Below are positions 1-13,613 of a stretch of DNA of 64,000 bases, in pieces. The notes below the pieces were generated by a model, which ran no database searches, was not told where the DNA came from, and was given only the letters and a program-made list of their open reading frames with translations. The DNA is from a virus (taxonomy: Duplodnaviria > Heunggongvirae > Uroviricota > Caudoviricetes). Within the stretch, counting starts at the first letter, position 1. Each line of letters starts with the position of its first letter. The translations under genes were made by a program, and so were the position numbers. Where the stretch lies: IMG/VR virus record IMGVR_UViG_2857349434_000001, positions 1 through 64,000 of that record. One strand, 5' to 3'.

Positions 1-46
1 ACTTTTAATCAGTAGGTCTCGGGTTCGAACCCCGACGCGCTCACCA
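1..46 (+). tRNA. tRNA-Lys(TTT), 3' portion only (anticodon loop to CCA); the 5' half lies upstream of the window
   Basis: Read directly: anticodon loop CUUUUAA, variable loop AGGTC, T-arm TCGGG-TTCGAAC-CCCGA, acceptor 3' strand CGCGCTC, discriminator A, CCA at 44-46. Confidence 0.7.
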
Positions 47-110
47 CCTAACTTCTTGAAAAACCTTCGTAATTTCAAATCGTCAAAGAAAAATCAGCAA
101 GCACTGTGTT

Positions 111-1136
111 CTAAAGTGTGTCGGCCTCCATCTGTTCGACGGCCCGGCGAAGGGCCTTCATGTTAAGGTGAGAGTAGCGCTGAGTCATGGACGAGGTCTT
201 GTGGCCCATGAGGTCCTGCGCGGTTTTCTCAGGCGTTCCCGCCTGGATCAGCCAGCTTGCGAAAGTATGCCGCAGGTCGTGGATGTGCAGGTTCGGCATC
301 TCGGCGCGCTTGATGATTTTGTTCCAACGCTTCTGGAAGCTGAACAGCGGCTGGTTCTCCTTCTTGCCCTTGAACACGTAGCCAACACGGTGTGCTTCGA
401 GTGTGTCGGAGAGTGTGTCGAGGGGCGCCTTCGGCAGCGGGATTTCCCTGGGACAACTGTTTTTTGTCCTCTCGCCTCCAAGTTGTATCCGCTTGCGCTT
501 CATATCGATCTCGTCCCAGCGCAGCTGCAGGATCTCTTGGTGGCGCATACCGGTCCAAACACCCAAAATGACGAACAGCTTTTCCTCATAGACCTTGCAC
601 GCGGCAAGCAGCTTCTCGTACTGGTTCCCGCGCCTCACATAGGTGGTGCGCTTGTTCGCGTCTCCGATCTTCCGCTTATCGATGAGCTTCAGCGGGTTGG
701 CGGTGACGCCGCAATCCCAGTCGATGGCGTGTGCCATGAGGGTGCTCAGGAAAGCCAGGTCGCGCCGAAGCTGGACCCTCTTTCCCGTCTGCATCTTGGA
801 TTTGATATAGGTCTTGACCTGCTCTTCATCTAGTAGCCGGATCGCGATGTTCCCAAGCACCTGCACGACGTTGGTTAGGCTCGTCGTGTAGTGGCGCTTG
901 GTCGCCTCGGAGTATGGCTTCGGCCGCGGGTGCTTGAACAGCTTGTCCGTGGCGTCAATAAGCAGCAGATCGTTGGAGCGTAGGAGAGCTGCGTTTAGTT
1001 CTCGCTCAACCCGGTCTGCCTCTTGTTGAGCAGCATCGCGACTTTTGAGGCCAGTTGATTTTCGGATGGTGTTGCCACCGACATGGAGGCGGGCTTGATA
1101 GATTGTTGATCCTTCGCGGAGGTAAATGTCGGCCAT
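111..1136 (-). CDS. int: phage tyrosine integrase
   Basis: C-terminal HDLRHTFAS...GH.....TQRYSHL (R-H-R-Y catalytic signature); N-term MADIYLREGSTIYQARLHVGG..R.STG resembles arm-binding N-domains; track ORF 111..1322 trimmed to Met63; lies next to the tRNA. Confidence 0.85.
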   Translation of the reverse strand: MADIYLREGSTIYQARLHVGGNTIRKSTGLKSRDAAQQEADRVERELNAALLRSNDLLLIDATDKLFKHPRPKPYSEATKRHYTTSLTNVVQVLGNIAIRLLDEEQVKTYIKSKMQTGKRVQLRRDLAFLSTLMAHAIDWDCGVTANPLKLIDKRKIGDANKRTTYVRRGNQYEKLLAACKVYEEKLFVILGVWTGMRHQEILQLRWDEIDMKRKRIQLGGERTKNSCPREIPLPKAPLDTLSDTLEAHRVGYVFKGKKENQPLFSFQKRWNKIIKRAEMPNLHIHDLRHTFASWLIQAGTPEKTAQDLMGHKTSSMTQRYSHLNMKALRRAVEQMEADTL

Positions 1137-1327
1137 TGATGGACCTTTCCCTGTTGTGGAGAAACATCCATCGTGTTCAGCCAAGCGTCGACTTCTGTCA
1201 AGCGGAACCGGAACTGGCGACCAACCCTCTTGGCGCCCGGGATCATACCCCGCGCCGCCCAATAGCGAATAGTCCGATCCGATACAGCCAGCATATCCGC
1301 CAGCTGCTTTGCTGAAACCCAAAGCAC
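995..1327 (-). CDS. AlpA/Xis-like MerR-type HTH protein (excisionase candidate)
   Basis: LADMLAVSDRTIRYWAARGMIPGAKRVGRQFRF..VDAWL fits the AlpA/Xis pattern (SxxTIYR...G.FP.P.K.G.R...W...EV..WL); GTG start inferred; 3' end overlaps int by about 140 nt in another frame. Confidence 0.5.
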   Translation of the reverse strand: MLWVSAKQLADMLAVSDRTIRYWAARGMIPGAKRVGRQFRFRLTEVDAWLNTMDVSPQQGKVHQWPTFTSAKDQQSIKPASMSVATPSENQLASKVAMLLNKRQTGLSEN

Positions 1328-1455
1328 GATAAACCCGCCCTGACGCCTGAAATCTGATGGCTCAGATATGAATGTTGCTGATAGGCAGGCTCTGTACCGG
1401 AATGGGACAAAGGTTCCAAGTGGAAAAATCAACTTATATACAAATTGGTAACATA

Positions 1456-1737
1456 TTAGTGATGCGCTTTATTATACCTCGCTAAAACACGGATGACGTC
1501 GGGGTGAACGGGATAGCCCATCCGCTCCAATAGTTTAACGCCGTCCTTTATGACTTGAAAGGACGGCGTTAAAGCAAACATATCGTCATCGTCGTAATGA
1601 AGATCGAGCTCTGTAGCAAGCTCCAGAAGAAGCTTGCTGATGATCTCTTTGTCAGTCGCTGTTATTTTGTCTTTTTCCGGCATGTCCAGCAATTTCGTCC
1701 ACCCGTTTTCTTTGCGTGCCGTGGGCGGGGAAGCCAA
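1456..1737 (-). CDS. hypothetical protein in a low-GC segment (moron candidate); the true start may be internal
   Basis: 93-aa ORF in a roughly 45% GC stretch; K/E/D/L-rich, unlike the GC-rich antisense artefacts; overlaps the 3' end of the upstream gene and contains the 1535-1572 hairpin. Confidence 0.35.
   Translation of the reverse strand: MASPPTARKENGWTKLLDMPEKDKITATDKEIISKLLLELATELDLHYDDDDMFALTPSFQVIKDGVKLLERMGYPVHPDVIRVLARYNKAHH
1535..1572. other. perfect 15-bp stem / 9-nt loop hairpin (TTAACGCCGTCCTTT...AAAGGACGGCGTTAA)
   Basis: Read directly; no U-tract on either strand, so not a canonical terminator; lies inside the low-GC ORF. Confidence 0.6.
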
Positions 1738-2392
1738 TAATTACCCCCTTCCGCTCGCCGTCAGCACATACGCCACACTGTGTACAACTCACGTCTGTAT
1801 AGGTAGCCGGGCAGACCGCAATCTTTCTACCTTTAGGTGTGGTATTTGCCAAGTCTTTCGTCCGACGCCTGTAGTCGCTTAGGGTTTCGCCCTTTTTTCT
1901 TTGATAATCTGAGTTCAACACCACCGCGACTGGGAGCCCCAGGTCGGCCAGTTCATCAGCCCTCGTTATGCTATCGGCCGAAAGGTTGATGGTGAGACCT
2001 TCGGCGGCTGCTTCCTTAATGATTGCGATGTTTTCAAGGCTAGGTGGCTTGTGCGTAAAGACAATAGCACGCTTTCCGCGGCTAGCCTTAGCAATCTTTA
2101 ATACGCCGTCTCTATCAATTGTGTCCCTTACCCCCGGTAGATCACCAGCCTGGCCATAACGCCAGATTGCACCCCGGTTCAACTTCCTAATGGGTTCAAG
2201 GGCTTTGTCCAGCCCTCCGCCGCGCTCGCCGGCGGTCACCGCGTCCCAGTGGAGCTTCAGAGGACCGGTCATCGCGTAGCAGCCGCCCTTCTTTAACGGG
2301 CAGGCGTCGGGGCAGGTTTCCAGTGAGCTGGTCATCACCGGCATGGGGCCGGTCTTGACGTTCCGGCTGACCAGCGTGGTGTGGTAGTTCAT
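1652..2392 (-). CDS. phage protein with an N-terminal Cys cluster (resembles the GP88 family)
   Basis: MNYHTTLVSRNVKTGPMPVMTSS.ETCPDACPLKKGGCYA plus a C-terminal CTQCGVC; family assignment is from memory only. Confidence 0.45.
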   Translation of the reverse strand: MNYHTTLVSRNVKTGPMPVMTSSLETCPDACPLKKGGCYAMTGPLKLHWDAVTAGERGGGLDKALEPIRKLNRGAIWRYGQAGDLPGVRDTIDRDGVLKIAKASRGKRAIVFTHKPPSLENIAIIKEAAAEGLTINLSADSITRADELADLGLPVAVVLNSDYQRKKGETLSDYRRRTKDLANTTPKGRKIAVCPATYTDVSCTQCGVCADGERKGVIIGFPAHGTQRKRVDEIAGHAGKRQNNSD

Positions 2393-2404
2393 CTTTCCCT
2401 CGCG

Positions 2405-2437
2405 CAAACAAAAAGGGCGCCCCGAAGGACGCCCTTG
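2405..2437 (-). terminator. rho-independent terminator (minus strand)
   Basis: Minus-strand transcript AAGGGCGUCC-UUCG-GGGCGCCCUU followed by UUUGUUUG. Confidence 0.6.
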
Positions 2438-2461
2438 TTCAGTTCCGTTGTTGTGGTCGGC

Positions 2462-2599
2462 TTAGGCCGCTAGAGGGAGCGGCTGCAGGATGCGTAGTTG
2501 GATGTCGGCCGCCTGATAGTTGTCGTGCTGACCGAGGACTCGTCCGTCCGCGTCGGTTACCCACCAGCGGTCCCAGCCCTGCTCAAAGGGCAGCTTCAT
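2462..2599 (-). CDS. small hypothetical protein (45 aa)
   Basis: MKLPFEQGWDRWWVTDADGRVLGQHDNYQAADIQLRILQ..; the tail of a longer Arg-rich track ORF, which was rejected. Confidence 0.25.
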   Translation of the reverse strand: MKLPFEQGWDRWWVTDADGRVLGQHDNYQAADIQLRILQPLPLAA

Positions 2600-2642
2600 G
2601 TTGGCGACATCGGCGCGGGTCAGCACATCGCCGGTCAGTGGC

Positions 2643-2948
2643 TCATAGACTTGAATTTGCAAGGAGGTTCTCCATTTGCTTGCGCTTGCCGGATAAGATC
2701 CGGGCGACAGGCTGGCCTTTGACCAGCAGGACGTCCCCGTGAGCGTCCGGATAGATCTCGATTGGTTTGCAGTTTTGTTCGAGGGCGGTGAGGCCCTCGG
2801 GCGTGATGTTGTCCTTGCCGATCTGGTAGGCGTCGAAGATCCATCCCTTGCGCCACAAAGACGCCGCGGTGTGGTACTCACCACCCTCGGGAAAGACCCG
2901 GTCCCGCAGCAGCGCTCGGATCAGCATGCTCTTCTGTTTCGGGGTCAT
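2643..2948 (-). CDS. hypothetical protein (101 aa)
   Basis: Non-artefact composition; ATGA-coupled to the upstream gene. Confidence 0.55.
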   Translation of the reverse strand: MTPKQKSMLIRALLRDRVFPEGGEYHTAASLWRKGWIFDAYQIGKDNITPEGLTALEQNCKPIEIYPDAHGDVLLVKGQPVARILSGKRKQMENLLANSSL

Positions 2949-3160
2949 GCTGCCTCCGCCTGTTGGGGCGTGACGTTCTCGACTTCCCGGTGGACGATCG
3001 CCTCGCAGTGGTTCTCCAGATCGGCGTGCATGCTGTTGAGGAAGATCTCCTCCGCGACCCCGCTTAAAGTCTCGCCTGGGCCGATTTCATCGGGCTCGAC
3101 GGTGATGGTGAATGTGTGTATGACGGTCTCGACAATCGTCACGTCGTACTTCTTAGACAT
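2945..3160 (-). CDS. hypothetical protein (71 aa, acidic)
   Basis: Start trimmed to Met32 (MSKKYDVTIV..); 4-nt overlap with the downstream gene. Confidence 0.5.
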   Translation of the reverse strand: MSKKYDVTIVETVIHTFTITVEPDEIGPGETLSGVAEEIFLNSMHADLENHCEAIVHREVENVTPQQAEAA

Positions 3161-3170
3161 GGAGTTCCCT

Positions 3171-3398
3171 ATGCCAAAACAGTTTCCAGTGGACCTGACG
3201 GACAAGAGCATGGACGAGCTCGAAGCCATCCATGAGGCCGTGATGCAGGCCAAGCAGGCGAAGGCGATCGAGCACCAGAACGAGCTGATCCGTCAGTACC
3301 AGGAGCTCAAGGTGAAGATGGTGAAGGCTGGGGTGGTGAAGGAGGATCAGCTTCCGAACCTGAAGGTGCGGGGCTGGACAAGGCAGAAGCCAAACTAG
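3171..3398 (+). CDS. hypothetical K/E/Q-rich coiled-coil protein (75 aa)
   Basis: GGAG 7 nt upstream of the ATG; composition is atypical for antisense artefacts in GC-rich DNA; overlaps the 3' end of 3307..3753 on the opposite strand. Confidence 0.45.
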   Translation: MPKQFPVDLTDKSMDELEAIHEAVMQAKQAKAIEHQNELIRQYQELKVKMVKAGVVKEDQLPNLKVRGWTRQKPN

Positions 3399-3753
3399 CC
3401 CTCCACTCTTCCTCGGTGATCCACCGGATCTCCTTGCCGCCAGCTTGTTTCTTGGCGAGGAACAGCGGCACGAAGTCGGGCACCTCGACGTAGGTGCGCT
3501 CGATCACCTCGGGCTCGGCGCCTTGCGGTAATGGCTCCAGGACGGCCCCAGGGGGCGCCACAGGGGCTTCGGGCTGCTCGGCGCTCGCTTCCTTCCTCAG
3601 ACCCATCAGGGCGTTCAGGAAGGCCGCCAGTTCCTCCCGTGACTCGATACGGATGGTAGCGAGCGCGGCCGGTTTCAGGCCAAGCTGACGCCGGTAGGCG
3701 TCAGCGTCGTTCTTCATCGGGAAGAAGGCGCGGTCGGTGTTGTAGACGATCAT
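3307..3753 (-). CDS. hypothetical protein (148 aa) with a Pro/Ser-rich C-terminal tail
   Basis: ATGA-coupled to the upstream gene. Confidence 0.5.
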   Translation of the reverse strand: MIVYNTDRAFFPMKNDADAYRRQLGLKPAALATIRIESREELAAFLNALMGLRKEASAEQPEAPVAPPGAVLEPLPQGAEPEVIERTYVEVPDFVPLFLAKKQAGGKEIRWITEEEWRASLASALSSPAPSGSEADPPSPPQPSPSSP

Positions 3754-4031
3754 GTGCCTGGCTCCCTGAAGAACACGTCGACGATCTCGAAGCCGTTCTC
3801 GTCTTCCTCGACCGTCATGTAGGTGAAGGGCTTGCCCGAGCCCTCGGCGTAGCCCGCCACCGCGGCTGGGTCCGGCTTGATCAGGTTGCTGACGACGTCG
3901 TTGAGCATGAGCTCACCGCGGTCGTACATGCGCTGGGCGATGCGCTGGGCCTGGTCTTCGTCCTCGGCCTCGACGGCGATCTCGATGCCGATCGCGGCCG
4001 AGGCCTCGAAATGCACTCGGAACTGCGCCAT
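3750..4031 (-). CDS. hypothetical acidic protein (93 aa)
   Basis: Start trimmed to Met41 (MAQFRVHFEAS..). Confidence 0.5.
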   Translation of the reverse strand: MAQFRVHFEASAAIGIEIAVEAEDEDQAQRIAQRMYDRGELMLNDVVSNLIKPDPAAVAGYAEGSGKPFTYMTVEEDENGFEIVDVFFREPGT

Positions 4032-4033
4032 GG

Positions 4034-4186
4034 TCAGAACGTGTGCGGCGAGTAGTAGCCGCTGCACAGGCCGAGCTCGTCCATGGCGTTCCCGCAGTTG
4101 CGGGCATAGTCGATGTTGTTGCGGCCTCCGGTGGTGGCACAGCCGGCGCAAAGCAGGGCCATGCCCAAAATGATGAGCTTCTTCAT
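4034..4186 (-). CDS. small lipoprotein (50 aa), absent from the ORF track
   Basis: MKKLIILGMALLCAGCATTGG.. gives a signal peptide plus lipobox L-C-A-G-C; AAGGAA RBS; stop overlaps the start of 3750..4031. Confidence 0.5.
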   Translation of the reverse strand: MKKLIILGMALLCAGCATTGGRNNIDYARNCGNAMDELGLCSGYYSPHTF

Positions 4187-4216
4187 ATCAGGTTCCTTGT
4201 TGGGGGTTGGGGGTGG

Positions 4217-4870
4217 TTAACCGACCTTTTCGAGGTCGTACTTCTCGGCGTAGTGGTCGGCCTTGTCCTTCGGATCGAAGTCCGGGTTGAACCAGATTGC
4301 GAAGAAGTCATCCTTCGCCAGGCCGGCGCCTTCCAGGTCGAGACCGTAGTGGTGGCTGAGGTTCCACTCGAACTGGCGCAGGTACTCGGCCTTTGCCCAG
4401 TCGCTGCCCAGGATCTCGTTGCGGGCCTTCCTCGGGTCCGGGAAGGCTTCTCCCGGCGTCACCGTGTTCACGATTGCCGGAATGATCTCCCAGTCATAGG
4501 CGCCGATCTCGCGGAACCACTCCGGCAGGAGGTCATAGACCTTCAGCACCCACTTGCCGATGTCGATGCTGTAATGGCGCAGCTCGACCGAGCCGACGCC
4601 TATCCGGTACGGGTGCCAGACCGGGTTTGGCTTGTCGGTAGCGACCGTGATCTCGCACAGGTACTCCCAGACGCACAGCGCCGCCTCCATCTCGAGGTGG
4701 CTATAGGCCTCGGGCAGATCCACGGCGATCTCCTGGCGGTAGACGCGAGCGCCGGCCTTGACCAGGTCCTCGGTCTTCGCCCTGGCATCCTTCTCGTCGA
4801 CGGCCAGTTCCCGGACGATGCCCGGCACCTCGTCGTGCTCGCCTTCGATGTAGAAGAGCTCAGCTCTCAT
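4217..4870 (-). CDS. hypothetical protein (217 aa)
   Basis: Start trimmed to Met15; ATGA-coupled to rtcB. Confidence 0.55.
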   Translation of the reverse strand: MRAELFYIEGEHDEVPGIVRELAVDEKDARAKTEDLVKAGARVYRQEIAVDLPEAYSHLEMEAALCVWEYLCEITVATDKPNPVWHPYRIGVGSVELRHYSIDIGKWVLKVYDLLPEWFREIGAYDWEIIPAIVNTVTPGEAFPDPRKARNEILGSDWAKAEYLRQFEWNLSHHYGLDLEGAGLAKDDFFAIWFNPDFDPKDKADHYAEKYDLEKVG

Positions 4871-6246
4871 TTCTTCTTCCTCTGCCAATGCATTTCGCCG
4901 GCCATGATGCAACCGTAGGGGTCGACGTAGTCGACGACCTCGGCCAGCCGGTGCTTATGGATCTGCCGCTGAACCTGCTCGGCGCTTTTGTAGGCGCTGG
5001 GCAGCTCGGACAGGTCCGGGGTGCCCAGGTAGAACCGAGCGTCAAGACCATTGGTCTCGCGCTGCAGGAGCTTGTCCGCGTCGTAGAACATGGTCGCGGT
5101 CTTCATGTACGCCGTCCGGCTCAGGTTCCGGCCGGCGCCGTGGGGCGAGAAGCCCAGGGCTTCGTCCTTGTCGGCGTGCCGGGTGACCATGATCGGCTCG
5201 GCCATGTTCATCGGGATCAGGGTCCGGCCGTCGTCGTCAGGCGAGAAGCCGGCGAAGGATGGTGTGGCGCCCTTGGCGTGGTAGAAGAGGCCGTCGTCGC
5301 GCCGGAACACGAAGTTATGCTCGTTCCAGAACCGATCGACCACGGAGTTGCCGATGCGCTGCTGGATGCGGTCGTGGAGGACGAAGTGGTTCAGCTTCGT
5401 CCACTCGCGGACCAGCTGGAGCGCCTCCCAGTAATCCTGGCCCGCCTCGGTGTCGGCGTCGATCCAGGCGGCCTGGGGGTCGGTCCTGGGCGACACGATC
5501 GCCGTGTGCTTCTTGGCCGCGGCCAGGCCTCGCTTGTAGACGAGCGCGCCGAGGCCACGGGAGCCGTGGTGGGTCACGATCGCCGGCTGGCCGGTCGAGC
5601 GCAGCGTGCCGACGAACAGGAAGTGGTTGCCGTCGCCCTGCGTGCCTAGATTGGTCTCGGCGATGTCACCGTATTTCGTCTGGCGGTCCTGGGTGAAGCG
5701 GTTGTAGTCGAGGTTGGCGCGGAGCGGCATGGGCAAGGCGAAGCCTTGCTTGCGCCCGCCCGGGCCGAAGTGCGTCACCTCCTGGGCGACGTCGAGGATC
5801 TTCTTCAGATCGTCGATGCGCTTGAAGACGGTGATCGCCATCGAGCAGCACACGTCAGCCGAATGGAAACCAGGGTGGATGGCGTTCTTGGTCGCCACCA
5901 CGCCGCCCACCGGGATGATCCCGGCGGGGCAGGCGTCGGGCATGACGACGGCCTTCTCAACGGTCGGCACCCGCACCAGCTTGTCCATGGCCTCGACGAC
6001 CAGGTCGAGGTTCTTCTGCTCGACGTCGTTCTCGGGTTCGAGGAAGACGTTGAACGGGAGGGAGTTGGTACGGAGCGGGATCTCGGGCGGCGCCGGAGGC
6101 AGGAGAGTGCCCACGGTGGCCCGAATGGCATCCTCGTCGCTACCGGACTCCGACATGAGGTTGGCGATCTCGATAGCTTCGCCGAACGACCTTCCTCGGC
6201 CTTTGGGGTCGAAGCCCCAGTCGATCAGCGTCTTGCCGGTGATCAT
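4867..6246 (-). CDS. rtcB: RtcB-family RNA 3'-phosphate ligase
   Basis: Motifs ADVCCSM (cf. DIGCGM), GDGNHF, HHGSRGLG and SPHGAGRN (cf. NHAGAGR); about 459 aa; GAAGGAA RBS. Confidence 0.85.
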   Translation of the reverse strand: MITGKTLIDWGFDPKGRGRSFGEAIEIANLMSESGSDEDAIRATVGTLLPPAPPEIPLRTNSLPFNVFLEPENDVEQKNLDLVVEAMDKLVRVPTVEKAVVMPDACPAGIIPVGGVVATKNAIHPGFHSADVCCSMAITVFKRIDDLKKILDVAQEVTHFGPGGRKQGFALPMPLRANLDYNRFTQDRQTKYGDIAETNLGTQGDGNHFLFVGTLRSTGQPAIVTHHGSRGLGALVYKRGLAAAKKHTAIVSPRTDPQAAWIDADTEAGQDYWEALQLVREWTKLNHFVLHDRIQQRIGNSVVDRFWNEHNFVFRRDDGLFYHAKGATPSFAGFSPDDDGRTLIPMNMAEPIMVTRHADKDEALGFSPHGAGRNLSRTAYMKTATMFYDADKLLQRETNGLDARFYLGTPDLSELPSAYKSAEQVQRQIHKHRLAEVVDYVDPYGCIMAGEMHWQRKKK

Positions 6247-6431
6247 GATGTGCGGTTCCTTCGGTGTTGGATATGGCGCTCGGCGCCCTCGGCGGATTTC
6301 AGCGCGCGCCGGACCTTCTGGGTGGCCTTGGTGGCTCCGCAGCGCTTGAGGAGCCTGCGGGCCTCGCGGAGGTGCTCCAGGGCCCGCAGCACATCCAGGG
6401 CGTCGTGGGCGGTGGCAGGTTTCAGGGCCAT
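6243..6431 (-). CDS. small helical hypothetical protein (62 aa)
   Basis: Trimmed to Met8; ATGA-coupled to rtcB. Confidence 0.4.
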   Translation of the reverse strand: MALKPATAHDALDVLRALEHLREARRLLKRCGATKATQKVRRALKSAEGAERHIQHRRNRTS

Positions 6432-6646
6432 GATGCGCTCGCGTGGTTGCATTCGCCGGGCTCAGGGTACTGGGGAGGGTCGGGCTCGGTGCCCACCAGG
6501 TGGTAACCCTCCGGGATGTCCGGCTCGTACAGCTCGGCGGTGTCGGTCCATCGTCTGGAGACAGGACCAGGCCGTGTGCGCGCGGCGACCTGGATCCAAA
6601 TGCCGTCCGCGTTCGGCTGGTCGTTAGGAACGATCTTCAGGCGCAT
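6422..6646 (-). CDS. hypothetical protein (74 aa)
   Basis: AGGAGGA RBS 6 nt upstream of the ATG; high GC3. Confidence 0.5.
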   Translation of the reverse strand: MRLKIVPNDQPNADGIWIQVAARTRPGPVSRRWTDTAELYEPDIPEGYHLVGTEPDPPQYPEPGECNHASASWP

Positions 6647-6902
6647 TAGGCTCGTCCTCCTCGGCCAGTTCGACGTTCTCGCTCCACAGGCTGTCGATGG
6701 TCATCGCCGGCGATAAACTGACGTCGGGGAGGTCCTCGTCGTCGTAGCGCTTGCCGGAGATCGGGAGCTCGGCGTATTCGTCCTCGCGCAGCTCGATGCC
6801 GTCGCCGACGAGCTCCTTGGCCTTGGCCAGAGCAGCTTCCTCCGTCTCGGCCTTGATGTAGGCCGTGGCGCAAATCTTCAGCTCGATCGAATAGAGGTTC
6901 AT
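6624..6902 (-). CDS. hypothetical acidic protein (92 aa)
   Basis: Trimmed to Met53; GGAGGAGAA RBS. Confidence 0.5.
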   Translation of the reverse strand: MNLYSIELKICATAYIKAETEEAALAKAKELVGDGIELREDEYAELPISGKRYDDEDLPDVSLSPAMTIDSLWSENVELAEEDEPNAPEDRS

Positions 6903-7309
6903 TTCTCCTCCGGCTCTGAGCGAGTGAGCAGCAGGGTGACGGCGCGGGTCAGGAACTCGCAGTCGGCCACCTTCAGTTTCTTGCCGGTCGTGCGCTCCAT
7001 CAGCGCCTCGATCGTGTTGACGATCTCGACCCGGCGCCAATCGCGATTGTGAAACCACGGCTTGATCTGGTCAGCCGGCAGTTCGTCGGCGTCTTCGGGG
7101 ATAAGCTGGCCCTCCAGCCACATGCTGCCGCTGTCGTCCAGGAACACGTTCTGGCCAGCGATCTGACGGGTCTCGGACCCATCCCAATTCACGTCGGTGC
7201 CGTTGCCGTCGAAGTCCCAGGTCCCGTCCTTATCCCAGACGATGCCACATGAGCATGCGAGGATGTCCTCGACGGTGGCGACGATTTCTGATCCGTCAGG
7301 CGCTTTCAT
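6899..7309 (-). CDS. hypothetical protein (136 aa)
   Basis: Coupled overlaps on both sides. Confidence 0.55.
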   Translation of the reverse strand: MKAPDGSEIVATVEDILACSCGIVWDKDGTWDFDGNGTDVNWDGSETRQIAGQNVFLDDSGSMWLEGQLIPEDADELPADQIKPWFHNRDWRRVEIVNTIEALMERTTGKKLKVADCEFLTRAVTLLLTRSEPEEK

Positions 7310-7572
7310 TCGACAACCCTCACGTATTCGGCGTTGGCAAGGTGATCGGCGTAGGCACGGGCCTCCTTGGCCTGCAGCTCGAACTGCTCGGCGAGGCGGC
7401 GGGCGCCGTCGCCGTGCGGGGTGAGGTCGACATGCAGGGTGCCGTCCACCGAGTGGTCAGGCTTCGGCTTGTAGTCGACCAGTTTGCGGAACTCCTTGGC
7501 GTGATCCAGGAAGCGCTCCGCGGCGACCTGGCAGATGTTGGTCAGGGTGCTGGGGTCGATGCGCATGGTCAT
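7306..7572 (-). CDS. hypothetical protein (88 aa)
   Basis: ATGA coupling. Confidence 0.5.
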   Translation of the reverse strand: MTMRIDPSTLTNICQVAAERFLDHAKEFRKLVDYKPKPDHSVDGTLHVDLTPHGDGARRLAEQFELQAKEARAYADHLANAEYVRVVE

Positions 7573-7805
7573 GGTTCCTCCACGTAGCTGGTGACGATGT
7601 GGCCCTCATAAGTCCAATCGCCGTAGCCTGTGATGTTGGGGTCGACATCGATCTTGATCGCGTTCGCGAGGTCGATGTTCGGACGGGTCTGCAGCCAGGC
7701 TGAGATGGCTTGTTCCACCTCGTTGCGCGACAGAAAGATCTCGGTCTTGACAACCTTCTTCTTGACCGTGACGGAGATCTCGGTGTGTTCCCGGGAGAGC
7801 TCCAT
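7569..7805 (-). CDS. hypothetical protein (78 aa)
   Basis: ATGA coupling. Confidence 0.5.
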   Translation of the reverse strand: MELSREHTEISVTVKKKVVKTEIFLSRNEVEQAISAWLQTRPNIDLANAIKIDVDPNITGYGDWTYEGHIVTSYVEEP

Positions 7806-8116
7806 CAGGCGTCCTCCATCTCCACGAGAGCGTTGGTGAGCTCGTTGTCGGAATGGTCCGAGATCACGTCCTCGTCGTTGCCGTGGATCAGCAGCACGGA
7901 GCCGATCTTGGTCTTGTCGTCCGCGCGCCGGAACACCAGTTCGGTGCTGTCGGTGGCGGCGATCTCGGCGGTGATCGCGTCGAAGTCGTTGGACCTGACG
8001 ATCGCGTAGTCCTCGCCGTCGTAGACGGAGACGACATAGCCCAGGTTGAGCGCCTTCCTGACCAGCCGCTTGATGATCTTGGCCTCGGTCGGCCGGACGT
8101 AGCTGGGGAGTGACAT
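7805..8116 (-). CDS. hypothetical protein (103 aa)
   Basis: Trimmed to Met39; GAGGAG RBS. Confidence 0.5.
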   Translation of the reverse strand: MSLPSYVRPTEAKIIKRLVRKALNLGYVVSVYDGEDYAIVRSNDFDAITAEIAATDSTELVFRRADDKTKIGSVLLIHGNDEDVISDHSDNELTNALVEMEDA

Positions 8117-8117
8117 T

Positions 8118-8474
8118 TCAATTCTCCTCGTCGAAATCTTCCTTGGTGACGTAGCGGCCGAGCCGGAGACGGCCCTTGGCGTCGGGGCGGATGAAGAAGC
8201 CGGCTTGGGCCAGCTCGGGGCCGAGCTCATTCAGACCACGGAGCAACTCGGCGGCGCGGCCGGGGAGCGACTGACGGCGCTCGTTGCGCCGGAGGTTGAT
8301 CTGCACCTCCTGGATCTCGCGCCAGGTCTTGGCGCCGGCGTGTCGGAAGAACATCACCTCGGGCTTGGTCAGCTGCAGGAAGCGGTCGATCGTCGTGATG
8401 CCGTAGCGGCGCAGCACGTTTCCGGTGCGCACGCTCAGCTCCAGATCGTCGACCGGGCTATGCGGCGACTGCAT
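8118..8474 (-). CDS. RNA polymerase alpha-subunit C-terminal-domain (alpha-CTD)-like helix-hairpin-helix protein
   Basis: LELSVRTGNVLRRYGITTIDRFLQLTKPEVM...GAKTWREIQEV parallels the RpoA alpha-CTD LELSVRSANCLK..G..T..DL...E.ELL...NLG.KS..EI. Confidence 0.55.
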   Translation of the reverse strand: MQSPHSPVDDLELSVRTGNVLRRYGITTIDRFLQLTKPEVMFFRHAGAKTWREIQEVQINLRRNERRQSLPGRAAELLRGLNELGPELAQAGFFIRPDAKGRLRLGRYVTKEDFDEEN

Positions 8475-8679
8475 CGCGGATCTCCTTCAACAATTCGGGA
8501 ATGCCCTCCTGCAGCTCACAGTCCTCGAAGCCGCGGATGAAGCGCTCGGCGGCGTTGAGCGCCTTGTCCTTGTGCTGGACGTAGTCTTTGAGCGTGCTGG
8601 CCAGGGTGGCGTCGTTGTAGCCGGCCTCGTAGAGGCTGATCAGCTCGGCCACGATGTCGCGATATTTCGGTTTGGACAT
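8458..8679 (-). CDS. hypothetical protein (73 aa)
   Basis: Compact coupling within the operon. Confidence 0.5.
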   Translation of the reverse strand: MSKPKYRDIVAELISLYEAGYNDATLASTLKDYVQHKDKALNAAERFIRGFEDCELQEGIPELLKEIRDAVAA

Positions 8680-8686
8680 GGGTTTC

Positions 8687-8860
8687 CTATGCGAACGAGA
8701 AGAAGCTCCAGCGGCGCGGCCGGCGGAACCTCAGTTTGTGGGTCTTCATCAACTTCTGGATCTTGGCTTCGGCGGTGCGCGCCTCGACCTCGGTGAAGCC
8801 CCGATCGGTCGTGACCTCGGACAGCTTCAGGATCAGCAGCTTGGCCTTGTGGCGGCTCAT
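8687..8860 (-). CDS. small basic hypothetical protein (57 aa)
   Basis: Trimmed to Met82 of the track ORF; ATGA coupling. Confidence 0.4.
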   Translation of the reverse strand: MSRHKAKLLILKLSEVTTDRGFTEVEARTAEAKIQKLMKTHKLRFRRPRRWSFFSFA

Positions 8861-9051
8861 AGTTCGTAGACTTCCTTCATGAGTTCGAGATAGCGGTTGG
8901 GCCGCGGGTGGATGTTGAAGCGCTCGGCGATCGCCGGCCCGTCGCAGTCGTAGAGGCGGGCCACGACGTTGCTCTCGCCCTTCTCGCAGGGCTGGTCGTG
9001 GCACAGCACCCAGTGGCTGTAGCGCTGGCTCCAAATGGCGCGGAGCTTCAT
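8857..9051 (-). CDS. hypothetical protein (64 aa)
   Basis: Trimmed to Met25. Confidence 0.4.
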   Translation of the reverse strand: MKLRAIWSQRYSHWVLCHDQPCEKGESNVVARLYDCDGPAIAERFNIHPRPNRYLELMKEVYEL

Positions 9052-9263
9052 CCCGGCTGGCCCGCAATATAGATGTAGACTGGACCACCGTTGGGGTGGC
9101 CAAGAAGGCCTATTCGGTTCCACTTGTTTAGTAGTTCGAGGAACGAACTACGTCCGACGTGGTTTGTTCTCTGGAACAACTCTTCGTCGGACAGGGACTT
9201 TGCCTCCCGGCTGATGATCGCGCCGTCGCGGACTATCACTCGGGTGAAGATGTGCGTGGTCAT
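9048..9263 (-). CDS. hypothetical protein (71 aa)
   Basis: ATGA coupling. Confidence 0.5.
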   Translation of the reverse strand: MTTHIFTRVIVRDGAIISREAKSLSDEELFQRTNHVGRSSFLELLNKWNRIGLLGHPNGGPVYIYIAGQPG

Positions 9264-9424
9264 GCCAGGCGCTCCTTCAGCAGTTGGATGCTACGTTCCA
9301 ACTGGTCCAGGAACTCGAATTGGTCGTGCCTGCTTGTTTCAGGCCGGAAGACAATTCGGACTTTGCCCAGCTCGCGCTGCCAGCCCAGGCTCTCGAGCGG
9401 CGTCCCTGCGATGAGGACTTTCAT
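9260..9424 (-). CDS. hypothetical protein (54 aa)
   Basis: Trimmed to Met13; its ATG overlaps the ATG of the divergent gene at 9423 (tCATGa). Confidence 0.4.
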   Translation of the reverse strand: MKVLIAGTPLESLGWQRELGKVRIVFRPETSRHDQFEFLDQLERSIQLLKERLA

Positions 9425-9659
9425 GAGGTGGTTTTCTCCAAAGGTGTCTGTTCGAACCAAAAAGGTCGGCGTGCGCCAGGTCGTGTCCTCGGTGGAGGTC
9501 GCGGCGGAGCATCTGCTTCAGTGGGAGAAGCGGGGACCGAAATGGCGGAAGGCAGTTGAAATGTGTTTGGCCGCGATTGAGGGTAAGGTTGAGCCCGACG
9601 ATGTGGGCAAAGCCTTCAAAGCCGCGGCCGAGGAGTCGGGGATGTTGGAAGAGGATTGA
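9423..9659 (+). CDS. hypothetical protein (78 aa) upstream of the DNA ligase
   Basis: GAGGA RBS; stop overlaps the ligase start. Confidence 0.45.
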   Translation: MRWFSPKVSVRTKKVGVRQVVSSVEVAAEHLLQWEKRGPKWRKAVEMCLAAIEGKVEPDDVGKAFKAAAEESGMLEED

Positions 9660-10270
9660 TGCAGACCGAGCGGCTAAAGTTCATCAAGCCCATGAAGCCT
9701 CTGCTCGTGCGGGAGCCGCCAGTGAGCGACGACTGGCTGCACGAGATCAAATATGACGGCTTCCGGGTTCAGCTGATCCTCGACTGGGCCGGCGCTCGTG
9801 CCTTCACGAGGAACGAGCACGACTGGTCGCGGCGGTTCTGGCCGGTGGTCGACGCGGCCGAGAAGCTGAAGGCCAAGTCGTTCATCCTCGACGGCGAGAT
9901 GATCGCCCCTGAGCCTGACGGGCGGCCGAACTTCCTGCAGATGCATTCCCGCATGGCGTGGAATGCCGAACTGCTGGCCTATGTCGCCTTCGACATCCTG
10001 TATCTGGACGGCGAGGATCTTCGCGCCGTGCCCCTGATTGAGCGCAAGGCCAAGCTCTGGCAGCTGGTGAAGCCGGCGACCGGGATCATCCAGTATTCCC
10101 AGCACGTCGAGGGCGGCGGCGCAGATTTCTACGAGGCCGCCCAGCGGATGGGGCTGGAGGGGATCGTCTCGAAGCGTCGGGAGAGCCCCTACAAGAGCGG
10201 GGCGACCGACGCCTGGGTCAAGACGAAGTCGCCGAACTATCTCCGGCGCGAGCGGAAGCGAGCCGCTTAG
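9656..10270 (+). CDS. minimal ATP-dependent DNA ligase (nucleotidyltransferase domain only, 204 aa)
   Basis: Motif I IKYDGFRV (KxDGxR), motif III FILDGEMI, motif IV EGIVSK, motif V WVKTK; no OB domain. Confidence 0.75.
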   Translation: MMQTERLKFIKPMKPLLVREPPVSDDWLHEIKYDGFRVQLILDWAGARAFTRNEHDWSRRFWPVVDAAEKLKAKSFILDGEMIAPEPDGRPNFLQMHSRMAWNAELLAYVAFDILYLDGEDLRAVPLIERKAKLWQLVKPATGIIQYSQHVEGGGADFYEAAQRMGLEGIVSKRRESPYKSGATDAWVKTKSPNYLRRERKRAA

Positions 10271-10403
10271 CGGCCCTGGCGGCTTCCTTGGCGCCGGTCG
10301 CGCCGCGGTAGTCCTTCTTCCCGCCCTTGAGCAGGTTCTTGCCGATGTTCTTGGTCGTGACCGGCTTGCAGCGCTGGTAGAGGTGAGCGGTGTGGGTCAT
10401 CAT
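10218..10403 (-). CDS. small basic hypothetical protein (61 aa)
   Basis: ATGA-coupled to 10400..10732; overlaps the 3' end of the ligase in antisense. Confidence 0.35.
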   Translation of the reverse strand: MMTHTAHLYQRCKPVTTKNIGKNLLKGGKKDYRGATGAKEAARAAKRLASARAGDSSATSS

Positions 10404-10732
10404 GAAATCCTATCGATTGAGTGGTTGCCCCAACCCTTGGCCTCCCAAGGATCGACGCCGGTGTGCTCGCGGATGTAGTCGGCGATCTGCCGCTGGTGGT
10501 TGCTGAGCGCGATGGTGAAGTGAGTTGCCGTGCTGATCGCCGTAGCGATGTGCTGTAGGCCGTTCAGGCCCCACCACATCGAGCAGCACAGGTCGTACAG
10601 CAGGGTCTCGTCGCCGGCCTCGCGCGCCTTCTCGCAGCGGGCGAACATCTTCCCGATGTAGAGGGCGGCAAAGGGCTCGACCTCCTCCGAAATGAAGGGG
10701 ACTGCTTTCTGGATCTCGGCCTTCGTGATCAC
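10400..10732 (-). CDS. hypothetical protein (110 aa)
   Basis: Non-artefact composition. Confidence 0.5.
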   Translation of the reverse strand: MITKAEIQKAVPFISEEVEPFAALYIGKMFARCEKAREAGDETLLYDLCCSMWWGLNGLQHIATAISTATHFTIALSNHQRQIADYIREHTGVDPWEAKGWGNHSIDRIS

Positions 10733-10772
10733 ACCTTGTTCTCCATCCGTTCATAGTGTAGGAATTAATTCC

Positions 10773-10970
10773 ATGCGCATCAGCCCACCCACTATCGAAG
10801 AGTTCGCGTTCCACATCGAGCTGTGGAGCGGCGACAATCTGCGAGTGGATGAGACGCTGGCGGTGGCGCGGAATATCCGCGTGGCGAAGGCCGCCTACGA
10901 GGAGGCGGTGCGGGGGCAGGAGGGCCGCATCGTGAAGCTACGACACGGCGCCCGAGTCATTCTCCCGTAA
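10773..10970 (+). CDS. hypothetical protein (65 aa)
   Basis: Trimmed to Met28; AT-rich upstream sequence. Confidence 0.45.
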   Translation: MRISPPTIEEFAFHIELWSGDNLRVDETLAVARNIRVAKAAYEEAVRGQEGRIVKLRHGARVILP

Positions 10971-11172
10971 GTTTTGCCTTATCGAGCTCCCGGATGAGCC
11001 GGCGCGTTTCCTCGGCCTGCTCGCGCCAGCCGTCACCCAGCTTGAGGTCGGGATGACCTTGCTTGTCAGCTTCCCGGGCCGCGTCTAACTGGGCGGCCAA
11101 TTCCCAGACCAGGCGAAATCGGATCTTGCCGAAATCATCACTGGTCAGGGTGACCTGGCGCATGGGGGTCAT
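10957..11172 (-). CDS. hypothetical protein (71 aa)
   Basis: Trimmed to Met83; AAGGAAAAG RBS. Confidence 0.5.
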   Translation of the reverse strand: MTPMRQVTLTSDDFGKIRFRLVWELAAQLDAAREADKQGHPDLKLGDGWREQAEETRRLIRELDKAKLTGE

Positions 11173-11293
11173 GTCTTTTCCTTGCGTTTGAGGCGCACCA
11201 ACAGACGCAGATCGGCGATCGGCGGGCGTTTCTTGCCGGCGGTGAGCTTGCGCTGGATGCGGCCCTTGAGCTTGTGCTCCTTGCGGGTGAGCC

Positions 11294-11740
11294 TCAACTC
11301 TCCAGCTCGGTCTTGGCCGCGGCGTAGTGGAGCGGGAAGGCCCAGTCGTCCGGGAGGCCGGCCCACGAAACCCACATGCATTCGAGCGTCTCGCCCTCCT
11401 GCTTGACGGCGGAGTCATGGTGGATTGGCCCGTCGTAGCGGGCGATCACCAGGTTGTTGCCGTACTCGTCGGTGACGAGCTCTTGGACCTGTTCGATGAG
11501 CTCGGGCAGTTCCAAGACATAGCCCGTCTCCTCGGCCACCTCACGAGCACCGGCCTGCTGCCAGATCTCGCCTCGCATGTGGTAGCCGCCCGGCAGGCCG
11601 AGTTTGCCGGCGCCGGGTTCGTTGGCACGGCGGATCACCAGCAGCGAGCCCGTGTGCCGGACCAGCATGACGACCACGGTCGGGGTGTTGTCGAATAGCG
11701 GGCGCCCGTCCTTGGTGTGGGCGATGGGTTGGTCGGTCAT
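11294..11740 (-). CDS. Nudix hydrolase
   Basis: Canonical Nudix box GGYHMRGEIWQQAGAREVAEETGY (Gx5Ex7REUxEExGU). Confidence 0.85.
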   Translation of the reverse strand: MTDQPIAHTKDGRPLFDNTPTVVVMLVRHTGSLLVIRRANEPGAGKLGLPGGYHMRGEIWQQAGAREVAEETGYVLELPELIEQVQELVTDEYGNNLVIARYDGPIHHDSAVKQEGETLECMWVSWAGLPDDWAFPLHYAAAKTELES

Positions 11741-12018
11741 GCGTTCTCCTTGATGATGGCCTCGTACTCGCCGGGGCTGTGTTCGCGCAGGAAGGCCAGG
11801 GCCTGTTGGTGGAGCGGCGAGCCGGTCTGAGCCTTGGCGTGGACGTGGCGCCAGGCGTCGACGTCGCGAGTCTCGCCGGTGAAGATGTCGCTGTCGTCCA
11901 GTGCTTGGAGTTGGAACTCGCGATCGCCGTTCTCATTCGAGATCGAGCCCGAGGCCTCGAAGATGTCCCAGCCCTCGGCCTGGGCGTCAGACTGATGTTC
12001 GGGAAGCCACTCGGTCAT
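11737..12018 (-). CDS. hypothetical acidic protein (93 aa)
   Basis: GTG/ATG start; ATGA coupling. Confidence 0.5.
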   Translation of the reverse strand: MTEWLPEHQSDAQAEGWDIFEASGSISNENGDREFQLQALDDSDIFTGETRDVDAWRHVHAKAQTGSPLHQQALAFLREHSPGEYEAIIKENA

Positions 12019-12197
12019 CACCAGTTCCTCCCAGTGGTCATCCAGCGGGCGATGTGCCAGGCCAGGGCACCGAGGGTGAGCAGCGCGATGAAGAAGGCGA
12101 CCGAGATCGGCAGGCCTTGGCGTATCGCCCAGCCGGTGATCGGCGGCGCCCAGATCCCGATGGCGAGGACCAGCGCGAAGTAGAAGAGACCCCTCAT
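12018..12197 (-). CDS. small two-TM membrane protein (59 aa), absent from the ORF track
   Basis: MRGLFYFALVLAIGIWAPPITGW...ISVAFFIALLTLGALAW gives two hydrophobic helices; AAGGAG RBS. Confidence 0.5.
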   Translation of the reverse strand: MRGLFYFALVLAIGIWAPPITGWAIRQGLPISVAFFIALLTLGALAWHIARWMTTGRNW

Positions 12198-12466
12198 AGG
12201 CGGATCTCCTTCACCTTGGCGTCCGGGTCACGGCGCGGGGCCTGGCGGGTGTAGGTGTAGATGCCGTGGTCGTAGGCAACCATCACCGCCCGGGCGAGAT
12301 CGAACTCGGTGTTGTTGTAGCGCTGGTAGGGGAACTCGCCCGAGACCATGCGGGAGAAGTCGTTGAAGCGCACGACCTGCGCGGCCTCGTCGAAGACGGC
12401 GCGGATGATCTGGCCGTCCTTCTGGTAGAGGCGCATGGTGTTGAAGGTGAGATCGGTGGTGCTCAT
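12194..12466 (-). CDS. hypothetical protein (90 aa)
   Basis: Trimmed to Met88. Confidence 0.5.
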   Translation of the reverse strand: MSTTDLTFNTMRLYQKDGQIIRAVFDEAAQVVRFNDFSRMVSGEFPYQRYNNTEFDLARAVMVAYDHGIYTYTRQAPRRDPDAKVKEIRL

Positions 12467-12702
12467 TTGAGGGCCTCGCACTGGGCGGTGAGGTTTGAGT
12501 ATTCCATCAGGTTGCGATCGATCGACGCGACATCCATCAGGAACGCCAGCTGGTGGGTGATCAGCCGGATGGCGGGGTCGGTGCGCTGGTCGACACCCTC
12601 GGCGAGGCACTCTTTGCACGCCTCGTGCAGGGTGAGCGCAATGCCAGATGGATTGCACGCGCCTTGCTGGATCAGCAGGGCGTTCTCGAAGCGATTTCTC
12701 AT
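12463..12702 (-). CDS. hypothetical protein (79 aa)
   Basis: Trimmed to Met40; GGAGATCATC RBS. Confidence 0.5.
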   Translation of the reverse strand: MRNRFENALLIQQGACNPSGIALTLHEACKECLAEGVDQRTDPAIRLITHQLAFLMDVASIDRNLMEYSNLTAQCEALK

Positions 12703-12722
12703 GATGATCTCCGGGAGGCGGT

Positions 12723-12793
12723 CCCAACCATCCACGCCCCGGTGCAGGTGCGACACCGGGCCAACATGCGTTGCCGTTAAGTGGATGGTTGGG
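12723..12793. other. nested inverted repeats: outer 13 bp (CCCAACCATCCAC / GTGGATGGTTGGG), inner 7 bp (CCCGGTG / CACCGGG)
   Basis: Read directly in the 132-bp gap between the genes at 12835 and 12702; no U-tract. Confidence 0.55.
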
Positions 12794-12834
12794 TGGACCG
12801 CGGGAGGAGAGCGGTGCACCTGAAACTGGGAGGG

Positions 12835-13558: not shown

Positions 13559-13613
13559 GGCGGGCTCCTGGATGGGATGGGGCCCGGGCGGTGCCCGGGC
13601 CGGGTTGGGTTGG

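Follow-up and report, generated by a model that had tools for sequence, protein, structure and literature searches.

Known phage RtcB ligases and related RNA-repair systems

Phage T4 mends anticodon-loop breaks made by an abortive-infection nuclease with the enzymes Pnkp and Rnl1: a kinase-phosphatase heals the ends, and an ATP-dependent ligase then seals the 3'-OH/5'-P. The repair of PrrC-cut tRNA-Lys by T4 is cited as a precedent in PMC12409363. The logic proposed for the RtcB described here is the same, with another chemistry: unlike the T4 enzymes, RtcB ligases seal 2',3'>P/5'-OH ends directly. A role of phage RtcBs against tRNA cleavage was proposed in 2011 for actinobacteriophages (PMC3203893), and the same counter-defence by RNA repair was put forward in PMC7824862 (2021) and PMC13313380. 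That phage RtcBs oppose immunity systems cleaving tRNA or rRNA has been assumed ever since 2011; we found no demonstration of it, nor experiments on any phage RtcB, in the searchable literature. Phage RtcBs are already common (we counted 491 phage records carrying one) and their role against tRNA cleavage has long been suspected; the RtcB described here is a real but ordinary finding, and its locus brings no new principle. What the locus does bring is a natural test set, i.e., close Mesorhizobium prophages that differ exactly by RtcB between the same two flanking genes. Both kinds of prophage, compared on hosts that have or lack ribonuclease defences, could answer the question cleanly.

Phage RtcBs of the family PHROG_1075 include those of the Rhizobium phages RHph_X66, RHEph10, and V1VFA-S, and of Bradyrhizobium phage BDU-MI-1. 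The RtcB studied here shares with them a full-length profile match that includes an N-terminal extension, the same catalytic residues, and a position by itself amid small hypothetical early genes. Those phages are virulent, have 115-121 kb, and some also carry Rnl2 and an HD phosphohydrolase, whereas ours is a temperate siphophage of ~72 kb in which RtcB is a presence/absence cassette near the integration module. RtcBs of the same clade are found in virulent Rhizobium and Bradyrhizobium phages (52-55% identity over 100% of the length), and a search of contigs with the RtcB protein as sole query retrieved only two distant loci. The RtcB-like ligases of actinobacteriophages (e.g., Cluster K1 mycobacteriophages) have the same proposed role but are only ~25% identical to ours. 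In Cluster K1, RtcB is accompanied by tRNA genes of the phage; ARAGORN detected no phage tRNA gene in the 64-kb stretch of DNA analysed here (the window).

Among cellular systems, the RtcB of E. coli (RtcBA/RtcR operon) belongs to the same family, has the same fold and active-site residues, presumably performs the same chemistry, and likewise lacks an archease partner. The phage protein differs from it by its N-terminal extension, its MPDAC motif, the lack of RtcA, RtcR, and a sigma-54 context, and a score of 85.6 bits for the E. coli-type equivalog model NCBIfam NF007153, below the cutoff of 407. RtcB2-PrfH, which is cellular rather than viral, combines PrfH with a paralogue of RtcB that mends RNA of the translation apparatus after toxins have cut it (PMC9223846, PMC13166195) and protects E. 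coli from colicin E3 (PMC9223846). Our RtcB has no PrfH neighbour and reaches 50 bits for the RtcB2 model (TIGR03073), below its cutoff of 271.8.

A temperate Mesorhizobium phage encoding an intact RtcB

The element is a temperate Mesorhizobium siphophage of ~72 kb. The features discussed below are, in order along the window:

1..46, plus strand: att core, 46 nt spanning anticodon loop to CCA in the 3' part of tRNA-Lys(UUU) (identity to the tRNA gene)
111..1136, minus strand: tyrosine integrase, 341 aa (ORF; PF00589 on the called gene in Logan contig L003)
2413..2436, minus strand: terminator-like hairpin, best on this strand (10-bp stem with 7 GC pairs, T-rich tail)
3307..3753, minus strand: p148, downstream backbone gene (tblastn in related prophages)
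3750..4031, minus strand: p93, small ORF, mosaic indel (sub-threshold DpnD/PcfM-like Pfam match, E=1.5e-4)
4034..4186, minus strand: 50-aa putative secreted protein or lipoprotein, beginning MKKLIILGMALLCAGC (ORF preceded by AAGGAA)
4217..4870, minus strand: p217, 217 aa, backbone gene 3' of RtcB (start overlaps the RtcB stop)
4867..6246, minus strand: RtcB-family 3'-phosphate/5'-OH RNA ligase, 459 aa (Pfam, PHROG, alignment to P. horikoshii RtcB, AF2 model)
6243..6431, minus strand: p62, small basic ORF of 62 aa 5' of RtcB (sequence; stop overlaps the RtcB start)
9656..10270, plus strand: minimal ATP-dependent ligase (DNA_ligase_A_M, 4.7e-30; RNA_ligase, 7.5e-6, just below the cutoff)

The att core adjoins the integrase gene. 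Contig L003 contains the same phage in attP form, lacking the 5' half of the tRNA, and the relative L011 is found integrated next to an entire tRNA-Lys(TTT) gene with the identical 46 nt. As the original prediction had it, the phage integrates in tRNA-Lys; RtcB is located in its non-structural arm, which is transcribed leftward. ARAGORN found no complete tRNA gene in the window. We saw no att-core repeat of at least 13 nt that could mark attR, because the phage is longer than the window. It had also been suggested that integration into tRNA-Lys hints at PrrC, whose target is the same tRNA. We know of no PrrC in the host, and the match is a coincidence of DNA integration-site choice: integration uses DNA identity and regenerates the tRNA gene, which has no tie to RNA cleavage and leaves the link to PrrC unsupported. 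Another relative uses tRNA-Lys(CTT) as its integration site.

The 459-aa ORF contains the motifs ADVCCSM, GDGNHF, HHGSRGLG, and SPHGAGRN, from which a full-length RtcB had been proposed, and the profile searches agree. It matches PF01139, the Pfam family of RtcB, with 125 bits (cutoff 27, E=6e-36), and PHROG_1075 ("tRNA splicing ligase") with E=3.1e-96, residues 1-459 covering profile positions 6-451 of 459. In the alignment with P. horikoshii RtcB, residues D131, C134, N207/H208, H226, H310, and H369 correspond to D95, C98, N202/H203, H234, H329, and H404, i.e., no catalytic Cys or His is lost. The metal ligands are predicted to be D131, C134, H208, H226, and H310, with His369 as the predicted acceptor of GMP. 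These catalytic positions do not vary among 29 aligned members of the clade and are at least 98% conserved in 119. The AF2 model (pLDDT 89.7) has an RtcB fold: all 16 PDB structures matched at E<=1e-3 are RtcB or RTCB, the best being 1uc2 (E=1.7e-25, TM 0.66). With all catalytic residues intact, the protein is predicted to be a catalytically competent RtcB. Its helical N-terminal extension of ~50 aa is kept within the clade and had no Pfam match in the profile scan. The His of the MPDxH motif is here a Cys (MPDAC), and this residue, C106, is at least 90% conserved in the clade.

RtcB as a single-gene cassette

The genes around RtcB are tightly packed. A 4-nt ATGA overlap is found on each side of RtcB, joining the p62 stop to the RtcB start and the RtcB stop to the ATG of p217. 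The primase and accessory genes share the strand of RtcB, while the terminase-to-tail module is on the opposite one. The hairpin at 2413..2436 is likely the end of the leftward operon holding RtcB, and no comparable terminator-like hairpin occurs between RtcB and 2436..2413. A sigma-70 promoter scan gave nothing near RtcB, which is weak evidence in the case of an alphaproteobacterium since the consensus is of E. coli type. Pfam scans of the ORFs at 18-25 kb for a repressor or early promoter region also gave nothing.

RtcB is present in four of the nine syntenic contexts examined, and p217 homologues without RtcB occupy the other five. Whether or not they contain RtcB, related Mesorhizobium prophages agree in the genes that flank its site, and the junctions are exactly at the ATGA gene boundaries. 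In L092, for example, p217 comes straight after a p62 of 92% identity. Judging from these junctions, RtcB is a precise single-gene cassette between the backbone genes p62 and p217. The original prediction had placed it in a dedicated operon with p217, the 50-aa lipoprotein, and small proteins. This does not hold, because p217 directly follows p62 in syntenic prophages lacking RtcB. The other supposed members vary on their own. The 50-aa ORF is absent from L011 (the closest relative), L012, and L008; p93 is absent from L011, and in L092 it comes after p217, with 93% identity. By this comparison both genes are separate mosaic indels. As for the outer genes, p62 is absent from L008, and homologues of p148 (tblastn, 59-88% identity) are found in L006, L008, L011, L012, L092, L094, and L096, with or without RtcB. 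The predicted translational coupling of RtcB and p217 is visible in their overlap, but a partnership does not follow from it, since ATGA-type overlaps run along the whole operon. More generally, that genes of an early phage operon are translationally coupled is no evidence that they function as partners.

In four diverged phages (the one in the window, L011, L012, and L008), p217 comes immediately after RtcB and its start overlaps the RtcB stop; across these phages RtcB is 69-95% and p217 54-68% identical. In L014, L032, L118, and Bradyrhizobium phage BDU-MI-1, an ORF with the p217 core is found at a distance of 1-5 kb from RtcB. One might thus regard RtcB, p217, the lipoprotein, and the small ORFs as one coupled repair module, with p217 as cofactor or end-healing partner. 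We find this highly improbable, as the comparative data largely refute it: p217 lacks RtcB in five of nine contexts of the same synteny, RtcB is missing within 10 kb of the p217 core at 37 of the 42 IMG/VR loci that have this core, p217 is missing within 5 kb of RtcB at about 75 of 80 RtcB loci, and the closest relative has neither the lipoprotein nor p93. Compared with solved structures, p217 shows no archease-like or other known fold. On the RtcB-less synteny and the two reciprocal surveys, we reject p217 as a partner of RtcB. Its conserved core (approximately residues 52-140, with the segments EAALCVWE, ...R..GS.ELRH..., and YDWEIIP) has a confident predicted structure and is part of a wider uncharacterised domain family. 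It is quite unlikely, in our view, that this core is a new RNA-conflict factor in the RtcB pathway of rhizobial phages. As such it might inhibit a host ribonuclease, act as its decoy, or process ends, for example. This would explain its occurrence near RtcB, adjoining or 1-5 kb away, in several phages, temperate and virulent, that are otherwise unrelated.

The usual partners of RtcB, archease and RtcA, are not among the neighbouring genes in HMM searches, and neither are RtcR, PrfH, and Pnkp (Pfam, NCBIfam, and PHROG scans, together with precomputed Pfam calls). The called genes within the 8-kb flanks have no Pfam family of RtcA or RtcR, the RtcB neighbourhood has no PrfH or RF domain, and no T4-type Pnkp was found, the only ATP-dependent ligase being the one at 9656..10270. 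Clustering of ORFs across 85 RtcB loci revealed no neighbour family in more than 15 of them; the most frequent one, p136-like, occurs in 15 at variable distance and on either side. The clustering thus brought up no conserved partner anywhere in the clade. In one Mesorhizobium locus, a 68%-identical RtcB stands alone among non-phage genes. From gene context, RtcB here appears to be stand-alone and partner-independent, its neighbours being merely neighbours. The PADLOC defence-system models matched none of RtcB, p217, p62, p93, p148, p136, lig204, and DUF7227.

Possible functions of the RtcB cassette

Counter-defence by RNA repair, a long-standing hypothesis in the literature, seems the most plausible role here. 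We lean, with modest confidence, towards the whole explanation that a stand-alone RtcB cassette serves this purpose in the lytic phase. The cassette would be transcribed within the long leftward non-structural operon together with replication and accessory genes, so RtcB would most likely be made in lytic growth; the presence of the same clade in virulent rhizobial phages, and of RtcB in 491 phage records, also points to lytic use. Using GTP and Mn2+ and forming a His369-GMP intermediate, RtcB would seal RNA 2',3'-cyclic-phosphate or 3'-phosphate ends to 5'-OH ends. Its substrates would be tRNA or rRNA that metal-independent ribonucleases of the host have cut, such as anticodon nucleases and effectors of HEPN or MazF type, and joining the pieces again would keep translation running. 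Metal-dependent tRNases such as PARIS AriB leave 3'-OH/5'-phosphate breaks (PMC12409363), which RtcB cannot seal; this would restrict it to countering a single class of nucleases. Some observations speak against counter-defence: the window has neither phage tRNA genes nor an end-healing enzyme, and about half of the related prophages lack RtcB.

Since the phage is temperate, RtcB expressed from the prophage might instead guard translation in the lysogen, to the benefit of the host rather than of lytic growth. The threats would then be outside ribonuclease toxins (bacteriocins, contact-dependent inhibition toxins) or stress-induced RNA damage. The lone 68%-identical RtcB of the same clade among non-phage genes in Mesorhizobium assemblies suggests that cells find RtcB useful alone, and RtcB2-PrfH offers a parallel in its protection against colicin E3 (PMC9223846), although our protein scores far below the RtcB2 model and has no PrfH. 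RtcB also overlaps both of its neighbours, no promoter-like site was detected around it with the E. coli-type consensus, and its clade is carried by virulent rhizobial phages. Such lysogenic conversion is thus unlikely.

Two other readings concern the substrate. The RtcB of E. coli is able to use 3'-phosphate ends of DNA as substrate, and a paralogue in Myxococcus caps 5'-phosphate ends. RtcB might likewise seal or cap 3'-phosphate breaks in phage or host DNA, perhaps with the ATP-dependent ligase, which lies 3.4 kb away and is conserved in this phage group. We hold this to be very unlikely: the ligase gene has the opposite orientation and occurs with or without RtcB, so the two genes are not linked. 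The sequence itself does not tell a DNA from an RNA substrate. As RtcB is the tRNA-splicing ligase of archaea and animals, it could also join fragments of the phage's own RNA, e.g., after intron excision or programmed cleavage. This we consider extremely improbable, given that the window has no tRNA gene except the att fragment, that no splicing endonuclease was found near RtcB, and that half of the related prophages can dispense with RtcB.

A putative lipoprotein gene downstream of p217

The 50-aa ORF had been predicted as a hidden lipoprotein gene of the RtcB module. It does occur at 4034..4186, with AAGGAA 8 nt upstream of its ATG, but as an independent indel it does not belong to such a module. 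Its N-terminus resembles a signal peptide, with MKK and a hydrophobic stretch followed by C-A-G-C. Compared with the lipobox [LVI][ASTVI][GAS]C, positions -1 and -2 fit, while the Cys at -3 is non-canonical. A 48-aa ORF with 58% identity occupies the same place in the related prophage L096, which supports this being a real gene.

Identity of RtcB and its gene

Four consecutive ORFs occupy 4034..6431 on the minus strand:

6243..6431, minus strand: p62 (small ORFs are named by their length in amino acids)
4867..6246, minus strand: RtcB, 459 aa, with the motifs ADVCCSM, GDGNHF, HHGSRGLG and SPHGAGRN
4217..4870, minus strand: p217
4034..4186, minus strand: 50-aa ORF, starting MKKLIILGMALLCAGC

The start of RtcB overlaps the stop of p62 in an ATGA, its stop overlaps the start of p217 in the same way, and AAGGAA lies 8 nt 5' of the ATG of the 50-aa ORF. 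As an observation on the sequence, the original prediction was correct as written: ORFs, quoted motifs and overlaps are all present. As ATGA-type overlaps are the rule along the whole leftward operon, this coupling is not specific to RtcB.

The 459-aa ORF matches the Pfam RtcB profile (125 bits, cutoff 27) and, over its whole length, the phage "tRNA splicing ligase" profile PHROG_1075 (3e-96). Its residues D131, C134, N207/H208, H226, H310 and H369 align to D95, C98, N202/H203, H234, H329 and H404 of the Pyrococcus horikoshii RtcB, which we take from published structures to be the two-metal site and the guanylylated histidine. All are invariant across 29 aligned relatives, and in a set of 119 their conservation is 98% or more. 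The AlphaFold model (pLDDT 89.7) matched RtcB/RTCB structures only in the PDB (n=16; best E=1.7e-25, TM ~0.65). To judge from sequence, the phage has a genuine and intact RtcB that stands alone. Orthology to the E. coli-type RtcB and to the PrfH-associated RtcB2 was rejected, both scores being far under the NCBIfam cutoffs. The clade of phage-type relatives is set apart by an N-terminal extension of ~50 aa (residues 1-50; three helices, no Pfam match), which is conserved, with G4, L7, W10 and G11 nearly invariant. The MPDxH of canonical RtcBs, around residues 104-106, reads MPDAC in the clade, with Cys instead of the His.

Of 50,697 phage records, 491 have an RtcB homologue. Among cultured phages, the nearest are virulent ones of Rhizobium and Bradyrhizobium (52-55% identity). 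More than 6,000 relatives at E<=1e-20 were among the matches listed from the protein database, and the contigs that carry many of them are as long as a phage genome; a protein of 95% identity already bears the annotation "RtcB family protein [Mesorhizobium sp.]". The RtcB of the window thus joins a well-populated known kind. Some of the virulent relatives with RtcBs of this clade have genes for an Rnl2-type RNA ligase and an HD phosphohydrolase too, with an NMN adenylyltransferase/NUDIX protein and a nicotinamide phosphoribosyltransferase downstream; in Rhizobium phage RHph_X66 (L001 1-930, 8381-10875), RNA-repair and NAD-salvage genes share one region.

The phage and its attachment site

The left end of the window carries the integration module:

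1-46: 3' part of tRNA-Lys(UUU), anticodon loop to CCA, by sequence identity
111..1136, minus strand: tyrosine integrase, next after the 46-nt tRNA-Lys part

A Logan contig of the same phage (L003, 72.3 kb) is 100% identical to window positions 1..14246 and runs past the 46-nt core into non-tRNA sequence, and therefore has the attP form. The first base of the window is exactly the first base common to attP and tRNA-Lys. The closest relative, L011, adjoins a complete tRNA-Lys(TTT) with the same 46 nt, and the more distant L008 adjoins a tRNA-Lys(CTT). No second copy of the att core was found within the 64-kb window, which fits a phage longer than 64 kb. This 72.3-kb contig comes from run SRR8741104, and because the phage is there in its attP form, excised or circular (L003 14200..14300), it may be active and inducible.

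From ~25 kb, the plus strand encodes the large terminase, the tape measure and a J-like tail fibre; the minus strand encodes a primase, a peptidase, NUDIX and many small genes including RtcB. Homologues come from Mesorhizobium almost throughout, and we class the element as a temperate siphophage of Mesorhizobium. Its leftward arm is non-structural and has RtcB placed between the genes for replication and the integration module; that this region is early we infer from the gene layout.

RtcB is exchanged as a single gene

There are ~26 close homologues of p217, nearly all from Mesorhizobium. The gene directly follows RtcB in four diverged phages (window/L003, L011, L012 and L008), and the same early-operon synteny occurs without RtcB in five other contexts (L006, L007, L092/93, L094/95 and L096/97). 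The order there is ligase (opposite strand), alpha-CTD-like gene, p136, small ORF, p217 and p148, with no RtcB within the 4-6 kb fetched on each side. In L092, p217 (71% identity) comes immediately after p62 (92% identity), and alignment of this junction with the window gives a difference of exactly the RtcB ORF, with edges at the overlapping stop/start codons. The 50-aa ORF and p93 are absent in L011 and have homologues in L096 and L092, respectively, which shows that these small genes, too, are independent. The proposal of a dedicated operon partnership does not withstand these distributions. The whole stretch is a mosaic of single genes exchanged independently.

Archease and RtcA, the usual partners for which a profile search had been suggested, were not found in the neighbourhood of RtcB, nor were RtcR, PrfH, Pnkp or a match to a known defence system. 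In two Mesorhizobium genomes (L009/L010; GCA_004017345.1 and GCA_003999085.1, 6001-7464), the clade is represented by a 487-aa RtcB (68% identity, in a cluster of 31 sequences) that stands alone among non-phage genes (Crp-like regulator, SDR, MarR/AsnC), an arrangement that looks like gene exchange between phage and host. About 3-6 kb from it are a DUF982 gene and an ATP-dependent ligase of 299 aa. Judging by these gene contexts, RtcB evidently works without a dedicated partner.

Reciprocal surveys gave a similar picture. Among 80 IMG/VR loci with the RtcB clade (45-80% identity), three have a p217-like ORF within 5 kb; conversely, RtcB is within 10 kb of the p217 core in 5 of 42 IMG/VR loci (four distinct). 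In INPHARED, a p217-like ORF was found in Bradyrhizobium phage BDU-MI-1 only, 4.7 kb from RtcB. The residual association is weak and can be explained by shared host range and early-region location; we keep a true association only as a novel case of low probability. When the flanking ORFs of 85 RtcB loci were clustered, 15 loci were the most that any family reached. The commonest, p136 (6899..7309, minus strand; 15 of 85 loci), lies at variable distance on either side, occurs in RtcB-less prophages too and has no family annotation.

The core of p217 (residues ~52-140) belongs to a wider family (477 representatives at E<=1e-3, 50% clustering) with a near-invariant EAALC.WE and invariant R98, D126 and P131. 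Members are often stand-alone (110-140 aa) or fused to unannotated regions, and the larger relatives have no annotated domains. The p217 model is confident (pLDDT 94.6), and a structure search with it gave no meaningful neighbour and no solved analogue. An archease identity was rejected.

Possible function

A counter-defence role for phage RtcB has been proposed for Cluster K1 mycobacteriophages in 2011 (PMC3203893), jumbo phages in 2021 (PMC7824862) and Rhodococcus phages in 2026 (PMC13313380); in the literature that we searched, no phage RtcB had been put to an experimental test. Here, RtcB would be made alongside the other products of the leftward operon in lytic growth, would re-seal 2',3'-cyclic-phosphate/5'-OH breaks left in tRNA or rRNA by metal-independent ribonucleases, and would so restore translation for the phage. 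We weighed this mechanism against lysogenic conversion, a role at DNA ends and processing of the phage's own RNA. Lytic RNA repair seems the most likely, and its support is indirect: the enzyme has an intact catalytic centre, its gene behaves as an accessory cassette, as is typical of counter-defence genes, the operon is tightly packed with no promoter-like site detected around RtcB, and strictly virulent phages keep the same clade.

The range of nucleases at issue is probably narrower than originally listed. PIN-domain nucleases have metal-dependent chemistry, which makes VapC-type toxins doubtful as a source of RtcB-sealable ends. The AriB nuclease of PARIS cuts tRNA-Lys(UUU) to 3'-OH/5'-phosphate breaks (PMC12409363), which RtcB cannot repair. 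A link had also been drawn between the tRNA-Lys attachment site and PrrC. For integration, attP has to match the 3' part of the tRNA gene in DNA sequence, and an identical gene is regenerated. One relative in which p217 follows RtcB in the same way integrates at another lysine tRNA gene, CTT, and some relatives of the same phage group lack RtcB altogether. Nothing ties the choice of attachment site to tRNA cleavage, and we treated its match to the PrrC target as a coincidence. In practice, the locus is useful mainly for its natural set of prophages with and without RtcB, on which the long-standing repair hypothesis could be tested.

Other genes of the phage

Further genes were annotated as follows:

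1652..2392, minus strand: Cys-rich DUF7227 protein, 246 aa (1.2e-83; PHROG_2554)
8118..8474, minus strand: 118-aa protein with RNA polymerase alpha C-terminal-domain fold (PF03118, 3.9e-11), early operon
9471..10270, plus strand: DUF982 gene (62 aa) and ATP-dependent ligase, opposite to the early operon
11294..11740, minus strand: NUDIX hydrolase, early operon (weak match to PADLOC candidate PDC-S07, 4.5e-6)
59109..61520, minus strand: ribonucleotide reductase, beyond the tail genes (PHROG_367, 4.7e-90)

The ligase is minimal (204 aa, nucleotidyltransferase domain only; DNA_ligase_A_M 4.7e-30, RNA_ligase weak at 7.5e-6) and is kept in related prophages with or without RtcB, in forms of 200-205 or 287-291 aa. 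Should its substrate be RNA, both end chemistries would be covered in this phage. The alpha-CTD-fold protein, common to all related Mesorhizobium prophages (L011, L092, L094 and L096), may be a device for host-transcription takeover. The DUF7227 gene lies between the terminator-like hairpin of the early operon and the integrase, and has the same position in L008 and L011.
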